From a virus (lineage: Duplodnaviria; Heunggongvirae; Uroviricota; Caudoviricetes), in IMG/VR virus record IMGVR_UViG_2851938318_000004: a stretch of DNA of 25,161 nt; one strand, given 5' to 3'. The number at the start of each line of letters is the position of its first letter. Within the stretch, counting starts at the first letter, position 1. The notes beneath the pieces were generated by a model. It saw nothing but the letters and a program-made list of their open reading frames with translations. It had not been told where the DNA came from and made no database searches. This document shows positions 1,002 to 25,161 of this stretch, piece after piece. The position numbers and the translations under genes were made by a program.

Positions 1002-2054
1002 TTAAAAATCAGCCTGACTCGGGATCAGTTTTTGCCAGATAGCTGAAACGTATTTTGCCTGATAACGGGCGTCATCAAGTGCATTATGGCGCTCACCTTC
1101 GAATGGGATAGCAGTTCTGGCATCGAAGTCTATGGCTTTCCCCAGCTCAACGATTGTGCGTACATCGCGATCGTTGTAGTAACGCCACGGGCAGGGGATC
1201 CCCTGCCGTTCGTATGAACGGCGCAAAATCGTGTTGTCGAAGTTGGCTCCATTTCCCCAGACCTGAACAAAAAATTCACCGGAGTTTTCGTCGATAAATT
1301 CCCGCAATTGTAACAGTGCATCATCTAACGGGATTTCATCGGTCATAATGGCAGATTGCGCTTCGCGTGATTGCTTAAGCCACCATTTAATGGTGTCCCG
1401 ATCAATGACTCCGCCAGCAGTTTCCAGATCAATAGTCTTACTAAATTCCGGTCCCATATCTCCGGTTTGCGGATCGAAAAATATTGCACCTATCGAGATG
1501 ATCGGGGCATCAGGATTTTTTCCCATGGTTTCAAGGTCGATCATCAGATGAATCCCCGCTCTGCTGGTGGATGTGATTTCTTGATGACCGTTCACCTTAA
1601 TTGAGAGATCTGCCGTCTCGCCAGTTTCATTATCGCTATCGTGATGCTGATTGCCGCCAGTGTTCTCCTTGTGTGGATGTTCAGCGCCTTCCATTTCCTC
1701 CGGATCATCTTCCTGAACTTCAACCTGATACTCTTCATCGAATGTTTCCTGGTATGTTGCGTCGCCCATCACCGCGCCACAATCAGGGCAGTTGCCGCCG
1801 CCGGTCTGACCGCAGGCGGTGCAGACTTTTTCCACTTCCTGTTGCGCCACTGGTTCAGGCTGTTTCGTTTCTGGCTCGTTTTGTAACGCATTTGGGCTGT
1901 TTTGTTCCGCTTTTTGGTAGTTCCGTTCCGATTCATGCTGGTTCTGGTTTACAGAATCGCGGGTCTGGATCCCCTTAACCCATTTCGGATCATTCGGGTC
2001 GCTAATCCCTGCAACAAATTCTCCGCGAGAGGCAGCAAGCAACTTATCGGCGTC
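1002..2054 (-). pseudogene. C-terminal fragment of a prophage exonuclease split by IS629 (DEDDh DnaQ-like 3'-5' exonuclease fold)
   Basis: Motifs IDLETMG (Exo I), [10 protein letters not shown] (Exo II) and [10 protein letters not shown] (Exo III, H-x4-D), plus a CxxC...CxxC zinc-ribbon-like segment. The frame continues upstream through the GTC target duplication directly into the IS end. Confidence 0.8.
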
Positions 2055-2096
2055 TGAACCGCCCCGGGTTTCCTGGAGAGTGTTTTATCTGTGAAC

Positions 2097-2987
2097 TCAG
2101 GCTGCCAGATCATCGTTTCCGATGGAAGCATAATAAGCTTTTTCTGCTTCTGCCGGAGGAGTATGGCCCAGCCTTCCCAGCAATCGTCGATTGTTATACC
2201 AGTCCACCCACGTGAGTGTGGCCAGTTCCACTTCTGCACGGTTTTTCCAGCTCTTACGGTGTATTACCTCCGCTTTGTAAAGACCATTGATGCTCTCAGC
2301 CATCGCGTTGTCATACGAGTCGCCTGTACTCCCTGTTGATGCCAGTAATCCGGCTTCTTTTAGTCGCTCCGTATAGGCCAGTGACACATACTGAGAGCCT
2401 TTATCGCTGTGATGGATGGTGCCAGACGGACGACGGGCCCACAACGCCTGCTCCAGCGCATCCAGCACGAATGTCGTTTCCATAGACGATGAGACCCGCC
2501 ACCCCACGATGTATCCGGCAAACACATCAATGATAAACGCCACATAGACGAAGCCCTGCCATGTGCTGACGTAAGTAAAATCAGCCACCCACAGCTGGTC
2601 AGGTCGTTCTGCCACGAACTGACGGTTTACGCGGTCGCCTGCGGCAACGGCTTTCCGGCTGATGGTCGTACGGACCTTTTTACCCCGGAGAACACCGGCA
2701 AGTCCCATAACCGCCATGAGACGTGCCACTGTACATCTGGCCACCCTGATTCCTTCCCGTAACAACTGACGCCAGACTTTACGCACACCGTACACCTGAT
2801 GATTTTCATCGTATACGCGCTGTATCTCTCTCTTCAGCCAGTCGTCGTGCTGCGCACGGGCACTGCGTTTATCCGGATGATGTCGCTGTTGCTGACAATG
2901 GTAATACGTTGACGGGGCAATATGCAGTTCGCTGCATACCGGTCCGACCCCGTACTGCTCACGCAGCTTATCCAGCAGTGGCATCAT
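2097..2987 (-). CDS. IS3-family transposase OrfB (DDE integrase-like catalytic domain), IS629-like
   Basis: 296 aa ORF; 5' end overlaps orfA in the -1 frame. Confidence 0.9.
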
Positions 2988-3310
2988 TTTTTCCAGAGGC
3001 GGTCGAACTCCGCCTTCGCAAAATAAGCGGAAGCCTGGCGAAGGATATCGTTACTGCGGCGCAGTTCACGATTTTCACGTTCCAGCTCTTTCAGACGCTG
3101 ACGTTCAGCGCTGGTGAGCCCACCATCACCGCCCCCGGTATCCCGCTCATGCTGGCGAACCCAGACACGCAGAGTCTCCGGCGTACAGCCAATCTTTGGG
3201 GCAATGGAACAAATTGCCGCCCACTGTGAGTCATATTCATCCTGACTTTCCAGAACCATACGAATCGCCCGCTGACGGACTTCGGGGGAAAAACGAGTAT
3301 TTTTAGTCAT
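2984..3310 (-). CDS. IS3-family transposase OrfA (HTH DNA-binding), IS629-like
   Basis: 108 aa, [26 protein letters not shown]... with C-terminal leucine-zipper-like [21 protein letters not shown]. Confidence 0.9.
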
Positions 3311-3364
3311 CCTGTTTACCTCTTTCTCAGGGAGTTTAGTCTCCAGGATTTCCGGGGCGGTTCA

Positions 3365-4786
3365 GTCAGGCTGGCTGATATTGGCTGCCTGCATAATTTT
3401 GTTTACTTCGTCAGCGGTAACTTTTACCGGCCCTGGTTGTGCGGTCGTGTCAGATGCACCAGTATTTTGTTGTGAACCTGAGTATGTACCGTTTTTGCGG
3501 GCGAAATATTCTTCTTTCGTGATTTCAGTAGCCCCGGCAGCCAGTGCCTTATCCAGACCAGAAAGTTTGTTTGCGCGACCGTATTTTTCGCCATCCTTGT
3601 CGGTGAAGAGGAAGTAGAACGGCCCCTCACGCTCTACAGATGGTTCGACTTCCACTTTGCATTCGGTTTTTTCGTTGTCCGGAATTGCCGTTTCCACTGC
3701 ATCAGTTTCTGGTACTGGCGACGAGAGAGTATCAGTTGCGCTCTGATTTCTTCCTTCATCTTCAAACACGCCCTTTGTAGTCAGGTATTCAGTAATGTAT
3801 TTGTTCAGTGCCACAGGGTCTTTGTGAATGTCGATCGGACGTTCACGGACAAGGCCAAAAATAGTCTGGCGGTCGTAGCGAAGGGCATCAGGCTGTTTGC
3901 GCATTGATGCCGAGATACGCTTCCAGTCTTCGCGGTCGTTGTCGATAACTTCATTTTTTGCCCAGCGATGGATGCTGCCGTCAATGTTTCCGGCATCCAC
4001 ATCACCAGGCCAGAGAGCGTAGGCCAGTTCGTCATCCAGTGTTTTCCATGTCTGCTTGTATTCGCGATGAATGGCAGCAATGACCGGGCTGATTTTTCCT
4101 GTTGAATTTTCAGTGTGCTGTTGATTGGTTCTGGCGCGGGCGAGATCAACAACAGACGTGTATTTTCCGGTTTCCTTGCGTTCACCTTCGCGACGTTTTT
4201 TCCAGATGCGCATCTCTGCCTGAATTTCGGGCCATTTGGCACCAGGCTTACATTTATGCTTAACCCACCCGATGGCATGCAGCTTAAGCTCCGGATACAT
4301 GGCGTTAACATCTGGCATTTTCATCAACGCTTCAACGATATGTCCGTCGAATGTTGCCATGTCTTCCTGCAACAATTCCTGTGCGCTAATAACCATATCA
4401 ACGGTGATGTTTTCACATGTGTCGAACTTAACCATGACAGCGTTCTGTACTTCAGGGGCCAGCTTGTCAAAAGTGACGTTCATCGGATCGGATTCAGTCT
4501 CAACCGGGACAAAGGAAGCAGACTCCTCATCCCAGCGGTTTTCCTGCATATATTCAGCATCCCAGGAATCGAGGGCAGGGCGGGGTATACCGGGTTTATC
4601 CTCGCAAACAAGAAATTTATAAGCGCAGTCCTGAGCAGCCGGATAATGTTCCAGGAATTGCCAGTGAAATTTTGCTCGAGCACGGCGTTCGTCGCCAGCT
4701 TCAATGGCAGTGGCTACAGCGACTGCACCTTCTTCCTTTATTGCCTGTTCGTCCGGAATGGCGGCGCAAATAAAGACTTTACTCAT
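3365..4786 (-). pseudogene. N-terminal fragment (474 aa) of the same IS-split prophage exonuclease
   Basis: ORF terminates exactly at the TGA formed by the IS629 terminus (3362-3364). Its last codon is the GTC target duplication and is in frame with the downstream fragment. SD-like GAGG upstream of the ATG at 4786. Confidence 0.75.
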
Positions 4787-4878
4787 TTTGTTTTACCTCA
4801 TTACAGATTTAAGGGTGAACAAATCCCTGCCATTGCTGGCATATAAGAATGAAATCGGATGTTTATTACGGAACTGTT

Positions 4879-5070
4879 TTAAAGACCTGCCGGGATTTCG
4901 TTATTATCCTGGTGAATAACTTTATCGACCGGGTAACAGTTACCGGGAATTTTCTGTTCGGTTGCTGCAGTCACACACTCCTGCATTGTCCTGTGAACAC
5001 TGACTGCAATATCAACTGGCTCTCCGGAAACAAGAAAAACTGTCAGAACAAGTGCAAATGCTGTATTCAT
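4879..5070 (-). CDS. ydfD: YdfD-like small lysis protein (63 aa) with N-terminal hydrophobic signal/anchor segment
   Basis: MNTAFALVLTVFLVSGEPVD... matches K-12 Qin YdfD in length and, from memory, sequence. Start overlaps the dicB stop (ATGA); AAGGA SD upstream. Confidence 0.8.
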   Translation of the reverse strand: MNTAFALVLTVFLVSGEPVDIAVSVHRTMQECVTAATEQKIPGNCYPVDKVIHQDNNEIPAGL

Positions 5071-5255
5071 TGCCAGCATCCTTTTTGTATCGGACGTAAA
5101 CGGGCCAGCATTGAAAGAATGCATATTTTATTTAATAGCTCCCGTTCGTGTTTTCTCTTGTTAATGGCATCTTCAGTAAATACAGGGTTACTGATAGTGA
5201 CACCAATTTCAAAACAACCTTCAGACGTATTAACGTTTGGTAATAACGTTTCCAT
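5067..5255 (-). CDS. dicB: Cell division inhibitor DicB (62 aa)
   Basis: METLLPNVNTSEGCFEIGVTISNPVFTEDAINKRK... matches remembered DicB of the Qin/Kim prophage; GAGGA SD 7 nt upstream. Confidence 0.85.
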   Translation of the reverse strand: METLLPNVNTSEGCFEIGVTISNPVFTEDAINKRKHERELLNKICILSMLARLRPIQKGCWQ

Positions 5256-5424
5256 TATCGCGTCCTCAACAATGAATTTTGTGATGCGGTGCCTGGTGCC
5301 TCCAGGTGACGTTAACCAGTTAACAATTAACGCCGGATACAGAGAATCCACCCATAACACTGTTTTTGGTTTTAACTGTTCCGCGTGCGCTCAGCCGCAT
5401 TCACCGCATCACAAAATTCACTTT

Positions 5425-5482
5425 AAAAAGGGCGGCAGAGCAGTCACGGAGTAAAACTGATACCGCCAAACGTCACCAGAAA
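5425..5482 (-). ncRNA. dicF: DicF-like small regulatory RNA (ftsZ-targeting sRNA family), about 58 nt including terminator U-tract
   Basis: Minus strand reads TTTCTGGTGACGTTTGGCGGTATCAGTTTTACTCCGTGACTGCTCTGCCGCCCTTTTT, with a GGCGG...CCGCC hairpin plus T-run. Lies about 170 nt upstream of dicB on the same strand, as in K-12. Confidence 0.7.
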
Positions 5483-5786
5483 ATTGATAACAGAGGGCGT
5501 TGCAGCGGGGTTGTCACTTAAGCGTATGGTCAACCTGACAACCCGGTGTCCTCAACGGGGAAGGAATAACCCCGCCATACTTACCGCCGCGCCATTTCGC
5601 GGATTGCCACAACCGGAAGCGCACGATCGAATTAAATTTAACGACGACCTATACAGAGAGACTAACTTCGCCGGGCGCTTTCGTGTTATGCCCTGACTTT
5701 TCAGGGATATATCCTTTTCAGTAAACTGTCAGTGCCGGATTCTTATCCGTGTCCGGCGCACGCACTCTACCTCACCTGTGAATAAA

Positions 5787-6161
5787 TTAATGATTAATTG
5801 ATATTTTGTTGTTTGATTCAACTTTCCCATCGGATGTGTGATGCTTTAAATCACAGGAATTAATACTGCTCGCTGTAAAATGATTTTCAAGGGGAGCTAT
5901 TCGAATCCCTTTCTTTTTCATTAACAAGCCAAATCCTTTATTAATGATGTCCATTAATTCCAGGAAGTATTTTTCATGTAAATCCTGGTTATCAGAGAGC
6001 TGCTTCTCTTCGTACAGACCGATAAAGGCACGACGCACGTTACCGGATATAGTATCGATGGTTTCTTTTTCTACGGTACTCAGGTCAAGAGTCGCCAGTT
6101 GAGAGCGAACCACATTCGATGCCATTTCCTGGAATGGTACTGGTAAATCTTTAAATTCCAT
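5787..6161 (-). CDS. Hypothetical protein, 124 aa, in the leftward early operon
   Basis: GAGG SD before internal start MEFKDLP...; its start region overlaps the stop of the upstream small gene (TGATG). No recognisable motif. Confidence 0.5.
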   Translation of the reverse strand: MEFKDLPVPFQEMASNVVRSQLATLDLSTVEKETIDTISGNVRRAFIGLYEEKQLSDNQDLHEKYFLELMDIINKGFGLLMKKKGIRIAPLENHFTASSINSCDLKHHTSDGKVESNNKISINH

Positions 6162-6172
6162 CGTCAACCTCA

Positions 6173-6325
6173 TCAGTCAGTGTTTCTGGTTAACCAGCGA
6201 CGCGCGCCAGCTTCAGTTTTAAACGTTTTGCTTCTGGTATACGTCATCGCGGTAAACGTGCCGTCCTGGTTGGGAAACACGCCGTACACCAGAGATTCGT
6301 TGTTGCCAAGATCGATAGTATCCAT
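6173..6325 (-). CDS. Small hypothetical protein, 50 aa (YdfA-like position and size)
   Basis: MDTIDLGNNESLVYGVFPNQDG... with GAGG SD; first gene left of the repressor region. Confidence 0.5.
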   Translation of the reverse strand: MDTIDLGNNESLVYGVFPNQDGTFTAMTYTRSKTFKTEAGARRWLTRNTD

Positions 6326-6509
6326 GCTGACCTCATTTCCCCTTAACGCTGGGGTAGCGGAACTAAAAACCTGCTGCGCTGTTATACAAAGTGTTCCCGC
6401 CGTCATGTTCATACGCCTCGGGCTGGCTACTTACCCCCTGACCACTGCTTGGTAACTCGAAGTATTGCCCGGCGTTCTGTGGGGCGGGGTGGGTTGGTAT
6501 GTTGTTAAG

Positions 6510-6523
6510 GTAACAAGAGTTAC
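6510..6523. promoter_or_regulatory. Candidate OL operator: inverted repeat GTAAC-AAGA-GTTAC
   Basis: Same half-sites and 4-nt spacing as the two sites in the cI-cro intergenic region. Confidence 0.4.
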
Positions 6524-6568
6524 CTTTTGGGTTAATACAATGTTGCAAAAGGTACATTTGAGGGCATG

Positions 6569-6590
6569 AAAAACCCGCAATGAATGCGGG
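6569..6590 (-). terminator. Intrinsic terminator downstream of the repressor gene
   Basis: Minus strand CCCGCA-TTCAT-TGCGGG followed by TTTTT, 8 nt after the cI stop. Confidence 0.55.
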
Positions 6591-6597
6591 TTCTGAC

Positions 6598-7272
6598 TCA
6601 GTCTAAGTATTGATGTATTTGTGAAACTTTACCTTTAATGGTGTAACCACCATTCAGTTCGATGGGTTTGTAAAGCGGATTCAGTGACAACAGATAGATG
6701 TTTGGTCCGTCAATCGCAACTTTTTTTAGTGTTACGTTTGGCGTTCCTTCCAATTGGATTAAGATTATTTTTCCCACCAGTTCTCTAATGTTACTTGAGC
6801 ATGGTGTGATCAGCACGGTAGATCCGTCGGGGATGGTTGGGAGGCCGTTAGAGTTTGTCATCGCATCTCCCTCAACATGCAATAAAAAAGAGTTTTCAGC
6901 GGTTTTTGTCATGACATCAACCCAATTCTTAATACCAGGAATCTCGGTTACTGGACAACTCATATCCCAATAACCAGCCTGTTCCCACGTTAAAACGGGC
7001 AACCGGGCGATGTTGTCACTAATGTAAGGGTACTGATTCAGACGCAGATCATCGGCTTTATCGTGACCGTCCTTTCCATAAAGAATCCATTCAGGAGATT
7101 TGGAAAGCAATTTTGACAGTAGATACAAATTCTCACCGTCAGGTTTTGAAGAGCCATTTTCCCATTTTGTTACGGATACACGAGATATGCCGATTGCTTT
7201 CGCAACCTGCTGTTGGGTTAATCCAACGTCTTTTCGACGATTCCGAATACGTTCGCTGATAGTGTTTTTCAT
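6598..7272 (-). CDS. CI-type prophage repressor (N-terminal HTH, C-terminal S24 LexA-like autopeptidase domain), 224 aa from the second in-frame ATG
   Basis: HTH LTQQQVAKAIGISRVSVTKWENG; C-terminal domain with S24-like length and layout. Start at 7272 preferred over 7314 because it leaves a 91-bp operator region before cro. Confidence 0.85.
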   Translation of the reverse strand: MKNTISERIRNRRKDVGLTQQQVAKAIGISRVSVTKWENGSSKPDGENLYLLSKLLSKSPEWILYGKDGHDKADDLRLNQYPYISDNIARLPVLTWEQAGYWDMSCPVTEIPGIKNWVDVMTKTAENSFLLHVEGDAMTNSNGLPTIPDGSTVLITPCSSNIRELVGKIILIQLEGTPNVTLKKVAIDGPNIYLLSLNPLYKPIELNGGYTIKGKVSQIHQYLD

Positions 7273-7334
7273 GTAACCAATGTTACTACCAAGTGATGTT
7301 GCTATGGTTGACATTGTTATGTAACTATTGTTAC
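7273..7334. promoter_or_regulatory. OR-like operator/promoter region: two GTAAC-N4-GTTAC inverted repeats (7273-7286, 7321-7334) flanking a TTGACA hexamer (7308-7313)
   Basis: Inverted repeats read directly from sequence; the first abuts the cI start codon. Confidence 0.5.
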
Positions 7335-7363: not shown

Positions 7364-7579
7364 ATGTTCAAAGATGATGTTCTGCGCTATTTCAAAAAAA
7401 AGCGACTAGTAGCTGAGGCTCTTGGAATTTCACATGTGGCTGTTGTGCGGTGGAAAGCAGTTATTCCCAAACTTCGCGCAATGGAACTGGATGAAATTAC
7501 TAACGGTGAATTGAAATACAACCCAGAACTTTACAAGAAGCAGGATAGCACCTCAAACGAAGGAAAGAATGATTCATGA
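7364..7579 (+). CDS. Cro-like HTH regulator, 71 aa
   Basis: HTH segment KKRLVAEALGISHVAVVRWKAV; divergent from the repressor; AGGAG SD. Confidence 0.75.
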   Translation: MFKDDVLRYFKKKRLVAEALGISHVAVVRWKAVIPKLRAMELDEITNGELKYNPELYKKQDSTSNEGKNDS

Positions 7580-12569: not shown

Positions 12570-12814
12570 ATTCATTACGATATGGGAATTCCCATATCGG
12601 GTAAAAACGGTTTGCGGTAAAGCGAGAGTTAAGTAGAATTGCTGCGGGTGCTTGAGGCTGTCTGCCTCGGGCATGCCACCGTAAGGCAGACAGAGAAAAG
12701 CCCCAGTTAACATTACGCGTCCTGCAAGACGCTTAACATTAATCTGAGGCCCAATCTATGCTTCACAAACGTAGGTTAGCCTCTTACGTGCCGAAAGGCA
12801 AGGAGAAGCAGGCT

Positions 12815-12970
12815 ATGAAGCAGCAAAAGGCGATGTTAATCGCCCTGATCGTCATCTGTTTAACCGTCATAGTGACGGCACTGGTAACGAGGAAAGACCT
12901 CTGCGAGGTACGAGTCCGAACCGGCCAGACGGAGGTCGCTGTCTTCACAGCTTACGAACCTGAGGAGTAA
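12815..12970 (+). CDS. hokD: Hok/Gef-family type I toxin (51 aa), HokD/RelF-like
   Basis: MKQQKAMLIALIVICLTVIVTALVTRKDLCEVRVRTGQTEVAVFTAYEPEE; in-frame upstream extension resembles a mok-like leader; inverted repeat CTGTCTGCC ... GGCAGACAG in the 5' leader. Confidence 0.85.
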   Translation: MKQQKAMLIALIVICLTVIVTALVTRKDLCEVRVRTGQTEVAVFTAYEPEE

Positions 12971-13137: not shown

Positions 13138-13398
13138 ATGGCGCACGATACCAAATTATACAATTCTGATGATTCTGCCGTCTTTGCCAGCAGGCGCGGA
13201 CGGTGTTTTCACGCATTCAAATCTGACTGGTACCAGCATCCCCCATGCACTGAAGAACAGGCCGAATGGCTCATTCAGTGTTACCGCAGGCGCGGATGCG
13301 AGGTTAAAAAAGCCCTTAGCCTCGACTACCGTCACTGGATAATCTCCGTCAGGCTCCCTTACTCCGAACGGCCACCGCGTCCGTCCCGCACATTCTAG
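13138..13398 (+). CDS. rem: Rem-like small protein, 86 aa
   Basis: Sits between hok and ydfU as rem does in K-12 Qin; internal ATG chosen because the upstream part of the ORF overlaps the terminator. Confidence 0.5.
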   Translation: MAHDTKLYNSDDSAVFASRRGRCFHAFKSDWYQHPPCTEEQAEWLIQCYRRRGCEVKKALSLDYRHWIISVRLPYSERPPRPSRTF

Positions 13399-24838: not shown

Positions 24839-25161
24839 TTTTTCCAGAGGCGGTCGAACTCCGCCTTCGCAAAATAAGCGGAAGCCTGGCGAAGGATATC
24901 GTTACTGCGGCGCAGTTCACGATTTTCACGTTCCAGCTCTTTCAGACGCTGACGTTCAGCGCTGGTGAGCCCACCATCACCGCCCCCGGTATCCCGCTCA
25001 TGCTGGCGAACCCAGACACGCAGAGTCTCCGGCGTACAGCCAATCTTTGGGGCAATGGAACAAATTGCCGCCCACTGTGAGTCATATTCATCCTGACTTT
25101 CCAGAACCATACGAATCGCCCGCTGACGGACTTCGGGGGAAAAACGAGTATTTTTAGTCAT
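24835..25161 (-). CDS. IS3-family transposase OrfA (IS629-like), copy 2; start codon is the last three bases of the window
   Basis: Protein identical to the copy 1 OrfA. Confidence 0.9.

Follow-up and report, generated by a model that had tools for sequence, protein, structure and literature searches.

The Qin prophage of Escherichia coli K-12 carries a module in which the small RNA (sRNA) DicF is followed by the genes for the cell-division inhibitor DicB and the lysis peptide YdfD, and both the processing and the pairing of this RNA have been described. DicF occurs in K-12 as species of 190, 72 and 53 nucleotides (nt) that result from RNase III and RNase E processing, with an RNase III 5' cut about 137 nt upstream of DicF and a mature 5' end (position 5482 in the DNA analyzed here) made by RNase E (PMC10448788). 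The 5' part of DicF is the seed that pairs with xylR and the 3' part pairs with the ribosome-binding regions of ftsZ and pykA; this pairing was shown in K-12 by compensatory mutations, and dicBF is known to be widespread and multi-copy across E. coli prophages (PMC5069750). In its passages citing Faubladier 1990, the same paper gives transcription termination at the DicF terminator site and the generation of the 72-nt species by RNase III. Here, we analyzed the corresponding dicF-dicB-ydfD module in a 25,161-nt stretch of viral DNA (IMG/VR record IMGVR_UViG_2851938318_000004), referred to below as the window. The window matches 1121285..1146445 of NC_013364.1, from E. coli O111:H- str. 11128, at every base but one, and this one mismatch lies inside an insertion sequence (IS). 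We conclude, with a probability of roughly 0.9, that the locus is a canonical Qin-type 'dicBF' early-left operon segment in a decayed lambdoid prophage of this O111:H- Shiga toxin-producing E. coli (STEC). The module is already known and its functions are published; the window holds an intact, near-identical copy of this E. coli prophage module.

A first-pass annotation, made from the letters of the window, had proposed that positions 4879 to 5482 hold a dicF-dicB-ydfD module with all its parts, in the leftward operon on the side of the repressor. We found all four elements there on the minus strand, and the two limits fall exactly on the stop codon of ydfD and on the 5' end of DicF. Searching with the Rfam DicF covariance model (RF00039) gave a match at 5430..5481 that covers model positions 1-52 of 52 with 76.7 bits (E 1e-15), above the gathering score of 48. 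The 53-nt dicF of K-12 is 100% identical to 5430..5482, the 78 nt upstream are also identical, and there is 1 difference in the 51 nt downstream. In fact, 5407..5602 is wholly identical to K-12, and the precursor (5430..5619) differs by one base, at 5603. DicF is therefore base-for-base the K-12 RNA with its ftsZ-pairing segment present, and the hairpin that had been proposed as its own terminator is likewise in place, followed by C and five U. The predicted duplex between DicF and the initiation region of K-12 ftsZ spans the Shine-Dalgarno sequence, with a weak energy statistic (30/500 shuffles). From the K-12 work, we infer that this DicF would be expressed, processed by RNase E as well as RNase III, and bound by Hfq. 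The same prophage also contains a PerC/Pch-family regulator gene (23278..23592, plus strand), and pch mRNA is reportedly a DicF target in enterohemorrhagic E. coli. RNAduplex of DicF against codons 5-35 of the window's pch gave -46.9 kcal/mol, versus -37.2 ± 3.7 kcal/mol for shuffled DicF (6/500), an energy calculated without an accessibility term and suggestive only.

The two proteins named in the first-pass annotation, a 62-amino-acid (aa) DicB and a 63-aa YdfD-like peptide with overlapping stop and start codons, both align over their full length with their K-12 counterparts, at 55/62 identical residues (89%) for DicB and 59/63 (94%) for YdfD. Over residues 1-62 of 62, DicB scores 127.4 bits with Pfam PF05358 (cut-off 27) and 132.7 bits with NCBIfam NF049927 (cut-off 100), and YdfD matches Pfam DUF1482 (PF07358) with 88 bits (cut-off 25). 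These scores, like that of DicF, are well outside the range of chance. The overlap between dicB and ydfD is the tetranucleotide ATGA at 5067..5070, an arrangement that is the same in K-12 and implies that translation of the two genes would be coupled. MinC-dependent division inhibition is assumed for this DicB allele, and IspG binding and division-dependent lysis have been established for K-12 YdfD only (PMC8835842). RefSeq NC_013364.1 annotates dicB and a DUF1482 gene at the module positions; dicF has no ncRNA feature in that record despite its identity to K-12 b1574. A 201-aa open reading frame (ORF) antisense to the module (4849..5454, plus strand) was rejected as spurious, as the same frame in K-12 has 3 stops and a longest open stretch of 129 aa. 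Promoter-like matches on the plus strand were at chance level in a consensus scan.

The gene order in the window is repressor, operator, ydfA-like gene, 124-aa ORF, dicF, structured leader, dicB, ydfD and exonuclease gene (Table 1). Homology to Qin falls into two blocks, 6194..6364 (ydfA, 94.7%) and 4020..5780 (95.3%), the latter extending for 1.76 kb from about 300 nt upstream of dicF into the exonuclease gene. Differences from K-12 are unevenly spread: 0 in DicF, 2 in the 174-nt interval between dicF and dicB, 5 in ydfD, 12 in dicB and 32 in the 299 nt upstream of DicF (5482..5780). A 1-kb region of the module matches 4738 of 5426 complete E. coli genomes (87%), with a median of 2 places per genome, a maximum of 10 and 6 in the window's own genome. 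Matches to part of the module were also found in 59 phage records, among them Tritos (in which dicF, dicB and ydfD are annotated) and mEp460_ev081; at least 80% of the module is covered in 8 of these records. As a near-identical copy of a well-studied module, the locus is ordinary. The module is annotated in RefSeq, 87% of complete E. coli genomes have it, and its wide distribution has been published (PMC5069750). In itself, it is one more of about six copies in the same genome, and it represents a well-characterized and nearly ubiquitous prophage cassette.

Table 1. Coordinates of the dicF-dicB-ydfD module and of the features around it in the 25,161-nt window (a point in the strand column marks operators).
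Feature	Position	Strand	Basis and remarks
DicF sRNA, 53-nt species	5430..5482	-	Rfam RF00039; identity to K-12 b1574
DicF intrinsic terminator	5425..5467	-	Hairpin 5431..5467 (-15.9 kcal/mol), C, UUUUU at 5425..5429; agrees with Rfam structure line
Upstream part of 190-nt DicF precursor	5483..5619	-	Near-identity to K-12 and published processing
Structured RNA leader, 152 nt	5271..5422	-	Five helices, STnc100-like architecture
dicB, 62-aa cell-division inhibitor	5067..5255	-	PF05358, NF049927, RefSeq WP_000449192.1; Shine-Dalgarno GAGGA 5263..5267
ydfD, 63-aa lysis peptide (DUF1482)	4879..5070	-	PF07358, RefSeq WP_001090200.1; AAGGA Shine-Dalgarno inside dicB
Terminator-like hairpin, possible 3' end of ydfA...ydfD transcript	4828..4841	-	Consensus scan (weak); no differences from K-12
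Exonuclease gene (ydfE equivalent)	1002..4786	-	Split into 3365..4786 and 1002..2054 by IS1203; downstream of module; RefSeq
124-aa ORF, unknown function	5787..6161	-	phrog_6937, 255.6 bits; in place of K-12 ydfB/ydfC
ydfA-like gene (DUF1391), first of operon	6173..6325	-	Pfam PF07151, 95.4 bits
O_L-type operator, palindrome GTAAC-N4-GTTAC	6510..6523	.	Between repressor terminator and ydfA, where leftward promoter must be
Likely repressor terminator hairpin	6572..6592	-	AACCCGCA-TTCAT-TGCGGGTT, T-rich tail; just after repressor stop; read from sequence, not listed by simple scan
Prophage repressor, DicA-like helix-turn-helix (HTH) + S24 (CI/LexA)	6598..7314	-	238 aa; Pfam HTH_3 62.5 bits, Peptidase_S24 61 bits
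O_R region, two exact operators	7273..7334	.	7273..7286 and 7321..7334; between repressor and cro
Cro/DicC-like regulator, divergent from repressor	7364..7579	+	Pfam P22_Cro 59.4 bits; NCBIfam DicC subfamily 56.1 bits, below cut-off

The prophage that carries the module is a lambdoid remnant located between yccA and tRNA-Ser/hyaA. Its integrase is frameshifted, its exonuclease gene is split, and genes for head and tail are absent. It has a lysis cassette, and beyond this we found the PerC-family gene, another copy of IS1203, TccP2 and an EspV that is truncated. The reported inactivation of the exonuclease by an IS was confirmed: the IS1203 at 2055..3364 has terminal inverted repeats and a 3-bp GTC target duplication, and removing it in silico together with one GTC copy restores an 823-aa ORF. 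The upstream fragment of the exonuclease corresponds to positions 1-474 of the 823 in phrog_2082, a profile whose length equals that of the restored ORF. IS1203 should be without effect on dicF, dicB and ydfD, because it lies 3' of the module, its transposase is directed away, a terminator-like hairpin stands between ydfD and the exonuclease gene, and in K-12 no transcript was detected running into ydfE (PMC10448788). The two IS1203 copies (2055..3364 and 23906..25161) are 99.9% identical and in the same orientation, the distal one being at the prophage edge beside tccP2. This pair brackets about 20 kb that include the whole immunity and dicBF region, and it could mediate deletion or form a composite element.

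The repressor had been described as an unusual type. Its architecture, HTH followed by S24 (CI/LexA), is ordinary, and the HTH is 57% identical to DicA; the part of the description that stands concerns the catalytic serine, which is replaced by alanine. Aligned with lambda CI (PDB 3bdn), Ala151 of the repressor (VEGDAMTN, codon GCG at 6862..6864) takes the place of catalytic Ser149. The repressor keeps an Ala-Gly cleavage site (EQAGYW) and the catalytic Lys (LKKV, aligned to Lys192 of lambda CI). Among 19 repressor homologues, 15 have G[DE]SM at the catalytic-serine motif where the window repressor has GDAM. Alanine is also found in relatives with 98% and 89% identity and in a 68%-identical Salmonella protein, serine is found in relatives with 87% and 65% identity, and a neighbor-joining tree of the homologues, drawn without support values, gives at least two changes at this Ser/Ala site. 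Of the complete E. coli genomes, 12.6% (685) carry the repressor gene; a 76-nt probe that surrounds the Ala codon matched exactly in 679 of them, and the TCG (Ser) version of the probe matched exactly in none. This immunity region, with the ydfA...dicB-ydfD operon behind it in every case, also occurs in apparently complete prophages at other sites, such as an ompW-site prophage with intact exonuclease, xis, int and terminase genes. We found no relatives of the repressor above 44% identity in a collection of 50,697 phage records, and our literature search on CI repressors without the catalytic serine gave nothing relevant. A CI-type repressor lineage in which only the catalytic serine is lost is a by-product of this analysis that can be tested directly.

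The palindrome GTAAC-N4-GTTAC occurs in three exact copies in the window versus 0.5 expected by chance; with one mismatch allowed there are 4 matches in all, a number reached by 0 of 100 shuffles. The annotated start of the repressor (7314) lacks a Shine-Dalgarno sequence and falls within the O_R region; the true start is probably Met15 (7272), which abuts an operator and is the start of several homologues. The peptide 'NIGYM', conserved among homologues with an N-terminal extension, simply translates the operator GTAACATTGGTTAC-ATG. These features point to mis-called repressor starts and to a leaderless mRNA, like lambda cI mRNA from pRM. The window yielded no LexA box above chance, with 7 pattern matches versus 8.3 expected and none of them exact, and no antirepressor, the ORF in the place of rem (13138..13398) having no similarity to K-12 Rem.

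Taken together, the module is most likely off under normal conditions and predicted to be stably repressed as in K-12, because the repressor is intact, three exact operators are present, the repressor has no self-cleavage nucleophile and the IS lies 3' of the module. It could instead be that the module is SOS-inducible, with a CI/LexA-type repressor that cleaves itself after DNA damage and thereby throws a damage-triggered switch to division block and lysis. The HTH_3 and Peptidase_S24 domains fit such a switch, as do the conserved Ala-Gly site and Lys, but the nucleophile is the residue that is missing, and equivalent Ser-to-Ala changes in LexA and CI abolish cleavage. Since alanine stands in for the catalytic serine and this allele is fixed among repressor-bearing E. 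coli genomes, SOS self-cleavage is unlikely, and the phage collection, with no repressor above 44% identity, is in keeping with a type that SOS induction does not recover. We consider SOS induction of the module improbable on these grounds; the module is probably not directly SOS-inducible and is closer to DicA-controlled Qin than to a lambdoid phage that SOS induces. Given a prophage this clearly defective, its decay (IS1203 in the exonuclease gene, a frameshifted integrase, lost head and tail genes) might have freed the module from control and left it constitutive or leaky, a doubt about repression that the first-pass annotation had raised. We regard this as highly improbable: the repressor ORF, the repressor terminator, cro and all three operators are intact, an identical repressor or a one-residue variant occurs in hundreds of genomes, and the IS is downstream and transcribed in the same direction as the module, away from it. 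Moreover, constitutive DicF, DicB and YdfD are toxic (PMC5069750, PMC8835842) and would be selected against. There is equally little to recommend the notion of an inert relic whose genes are intact merely through recent insertion. The location in a remnant prophage would agree with it, but functional phages and most complete genomes keep the module, the latter often more than once; DicF has accumulated no differences from K-12 against the 32 in the sequence just upstream, and substitutions in the leader that follows it keep the structure.

This leader, the interval between dicF and dicB, could itself be dismissed as a mere spacer whose similarity among phages reflects recent ancestry or a recombination linker and not a functional RNA structure. 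Many copies are indeed more than 97% identical, the score of the interval against the Rfam STnc100 model is below the gathering score, and relatedness of the sequences can inflate the shuffle control. We collected copies of the leader by a distant blastn with dicF and the spacer against phages and by a motif scan of species-dereplicated genomes. In 80 DicB loci listed from viral contigs, DicB was 100% identical in all, and these were of no use for covariation. From MAFFT alignments with either 13 or 25 distinct copies, RNAalifold predicted the same five helices: a 21-bp closing stem (5402..5422 paired with 5271..5291) that encloses four inner helices. The window leader alone folds into this consensus structure with -69.5 kcal/mol and a z-score of -7.2. 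We then counted pairs in a sequence-only MAFFT alignment (44 pairs, with the outer extension of the closing stem added), using as controls the same pairs with partners slid by 1-3 columns and 500 shuffles. Standard pairs filled 94.5% of cells versus 33-42% in the slid controls, and none of the 500 shuffles reached 94.5%. Double-sided changes were found at 17 of the 44 pairs versus 3-6 in the slid controls and 8.2 ± 1.7 in the shuffles (0/500 reached 17), and the covariation score was 0.203 versus 0.03-0.06 for the slid controls, again reached by 0/500 shuffles. In the divergent Enterobacter, Klebsiella and Pseudescherichia copies, both strands of leader helices have been rewritten. The window departs from K-12 at just two positions of the interval, 5406 and 5288, and each change converts G-C to G-U, in neighboring pairs of the closing stem. 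A published RNase III cut falls inside that stem. We find it hard to reconcile a mere spacer with these observations and give that possibility little credence.

Several observations do weigh against the conclusion that this is an intact Qin-type module under stable repression. Seven of the 62 DicB residues differ from K-12, five of them within the last 16 (the protein ends in RPIQKGCWQ), and the activity of this DicB is assumed; expression in O111:H- 11128 is likewise carried over from work on K-12. A consensus scan found no leftward promoter hexamers on the minus strand near the operator and manual candidates were weak, and because hexamers were not identified, the leftward promoter is located by the operator alone. 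With its Ala-Gly site and Lys retained, the repressor may be open to cleavage in trans or to another route of inactivation. Finally, the genome holds about six dicF/dicB-like places, so phenotypes could not be assigned to the window copy alone. A Qin-type module that is normally off remains our conclusion. As this copy is under a repressor that is probably blind to SOS, its contribution may be decoupled from DNA-damage induction, which has a slight bearing on STEC biology.

To characterize the leader further, we compared it with known RNA families. When 4700..6600 was scanned permissively with Rfam, STnc100 (RF02076) matched over its full length at 5223..5432; the score of 40.1 bits (E 9e-7) is below the gathering score of 47. 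The model detected all of the leader copies tested (29.5-47.8 bits), with only the Pseudescherichia copy reaching 47. In the full-length model alignment, the leader has the STnc100 outer helix enclosing hairpins and the conserved loop and junction motifs. It has no STnc100-type 3' terminator; the terminator positions of the model align, with low confidence, to the Shine-Dalgarno sequence and start codon of dicB. The dicF-dicB leader is an internal leader of an mRNA and not a stand-alone sRNA. The 3' end of the 72-nt DicF maps to 5411, the middle of the 5' strand of the closing stem. Because this published end falls mid-stem in a 21-bp helix, the leader is probably the RNase III substrate at which DicF is parted from the dicB-ydfD mRNA, and it would also give this mRNA its 5' end. 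In the minimum-free-energy fold of 5262..5431 (minus strand), CCUU at the base of the DicF terminator tail pairs with GAGG of the dicB Shine-Dalgarno sequence, 4 bp that lie outside the 21-bp stem. If this pairing is true, the dicB ribosome-binding site would be partly hidden in the transcript before processing, and an RNase III cut would free it.

The leader is not confined to dicB. In phages lacking dicF, the spacer without DicF proper is 81-88% identical and is always unannotated DNA directly 5' of a small gene. It lies 5' of kil/kilR in Rac-SA53, Shigella phages 75/02 Stx and POCJ13, PhiR5_2, phiSTEC1589-Stx1c, vB_EcoS-683R6 and vB_EcoS-666R9, and 5' of tciA(terB)/tciB in the P1-like phages P7 and D6. 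The motif scan returned 21 loci, all of Enterobacteriaceae-type sequence (Escherichia, Shigella, Klebsiella, Enterobacter, Pseudescherichia and a few probably contaminated bins of metagenome-assembled genomes); the genes 3' of the non-Escherichia copies are ORFs of unknown function. In P7 (locus L087, 1801..1916) and D6 (locus L094, 601..721), it is the leader core (STnc100 model positions 31-147) that is present, in the C1-controlled ban operon. It has tRNA genes on one side there and tciA(terB)/tciB on the other, the latter with annotations for tellurite/colicin resistance or cell-division inhibition. The kil-type phages have, just upstream of the leader, a hairpin-terminated DicF-like RNA with Rfam DicF scores of 34-41 bits, below the gathering score, as in Rac-SA53 (locus L089, 1790..1844), phiSTEC1589-Stx1c (locus L090, 589..639) and vB_EcoS-683R6 (locus L092, 552..606). 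Its loop and seed are unlike those of DicF, so ftsZ pairing would differ. An in-frame extension of DicB (97 aa, from a GTG at 5360) was rejected as the cause of spacer conservation, since the indels are not multiples of three; the changes are also compensatory in RNA helices, and the element stands 5' of kil and tciA as well.

A terminated small RNA, a leader and a division inhibitor form an architecture that is common to dicB- and kil-type phages. We tentatively propose, as a possibility that falls short of being probable, that the leader is an unnamed branch of STnc100/PasD that serves as a shared RNase III-gated 5' leader of unrelated inhibitors (dicB in Qin-type prophages, kil/kilR in Rac-type and Stx phages, tciA/tciB in P1-like phages). 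Under this proposal, a cut in the stem would at once yield the 72-nt DicF and fix where the inhibitor mRNA begins, how stable it is and how it is translated, and the conserved inner helices would do more, for example bind a factor. The STnc100/PasD literature examined does not mention dicF or dicB, and the 1990/1994 Bouché papers may already describe part of the leader or its Rac copy. A covarying STnc100-like fold common to the leaders of three unrelated division-inhibitor genes is a second by-product that can be tested directly. The window also contains a bona fide STnc100 (138 bits) at 17872..18062 on the plus strand, after three tRNA genes and before a SASA/NanS-type esterase gene. This position is the place of stx in Stx phages, and the window thus has two copies of the fold.

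Following what has been published for K-12 (PMC10448788, PMC5069750, PMC6832061, PMC8835842), the operon would be transcribed as one polycistronic RNA from the repressor-controlled leftward promoter. DicF would be excised from it through cuts by RNase III and by RNase E, with a 3' end made either by its own terminator (53 nt) or by RNase III in the 21-bp stem (72 nt). Together with Hfq, DicF would block ftsZ translation through its 3' part and repress xylR through its 5' part, along with pykA and manX (PMC5069750). DicB, translated from read-through RNA, would send MinC to the septum and block division, and would also block ManYZ-dependent phage entry (PMC6832061, PMC10448788). YdfD from the same RNA would bind and inhibit IspG and lyse dividing cells, a lysis that co-expression of DicB would counteract (PMC8835842). 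Any expression of the module would come from stochastic switching between repressor and Cro, from an antirepressor encoded elsewhere (as described for Qin) or from stress effects, and IS1203, being 3' of the module, would have no role in its control.

Two further parts of the window resemble or depart from Qin. The 124-aa ORF has no Pfam match, and 5787..6161 has no DNA homology to K-12; in strain 6817, ydfB, ydfC and the 124-aa ORF occur all together. In the rightward operon, as in Qin, there is a hok/sok type I toxin-antitoxin locus at 12646..12970 (plus strand; sok 117.5 bits, hokD annotated). It is followed by the 86-aa ORF at 13138..13398 (phrog_1212), which occupies the neighborhood of rem in K-12 and is unrelated to Rem.

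We lastly compared the locus with known systems. The lambda pL operon is a repressor-controlled leftward early operon with the host division inhibitor kil and an RNase III-processed N-leader. The module is like it in position and logic only, with no sequence or family relationship; no N or nut elements were identified in the window. Closer to hand are the kil/kilR regions of Rac-SA53 and of the Shigella phages 75/02 Stx and POCJ13, which share the early-left DicF-like RNA, a leader at 81-88% identity, a small inhibitor and an exonuclease or recE gene. Their inhibitor, however, Kil or KilR, is unrelated to DicB by BLASTP and Pfam, their region lacks ydfD, and their DicF-like RNA, unlike DicF, lacks the ftsZ-pairing sequence.

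The leader is like STnc100 (RF02076) and PasD in covering the whole 206-position model, with the outer helix, the inner hairpins and the GGUGAAU and CACC-N-GGAGGCACC-N-GGCACC motifs. In contrast to them, it stays below the gathering score (40.1 < 47 bits), has no 3' terminator hairpin and runs into the dicB ribosome-binding site. It is also located early-left, whereas STnc100 and PasD are located in the late region near esterase genes (bioRxiv 10.64898/2026.05.13.724894). The repressor resembles non-cleavable prophage repressors that antirepressors control (DicA/Rem in Qin, GfoR/GfhR of Gifsy prophages) in having an HTH 57% identical to DicA and in that self-cleavage is predicted to be impossible; for such repressors, the published model is inactivation by an antirepressor (PMC10448788). 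Those repressors are short and without an S24 domain or Ala-Gly, whereas the window repressor has the full S24 fold, Ala-Gly and Lys, with only the Ser lost.

Against K-12 Qin, the immunity region has been swapped: a 238-aa HTH and S24 repressor stands in for the 135-aa DicA, the operators are others and the DNA is unrelated. The window has the 124-aa ORF in place of ydfB/ydfC, no rem antirepressor gene at the equivalent site, and an integration site beside yccA/tRNA-Ser instead of the Qin site. What it shares with Qin is an exonuclease gene disrupted by an IS (IS2 in K-12, IS1203 here), the order ydfA...dicF-dicB-ydfD-exonuclease, the 175-nt distance between dicF and dicB, the ATGA overlap and an identical DicF.

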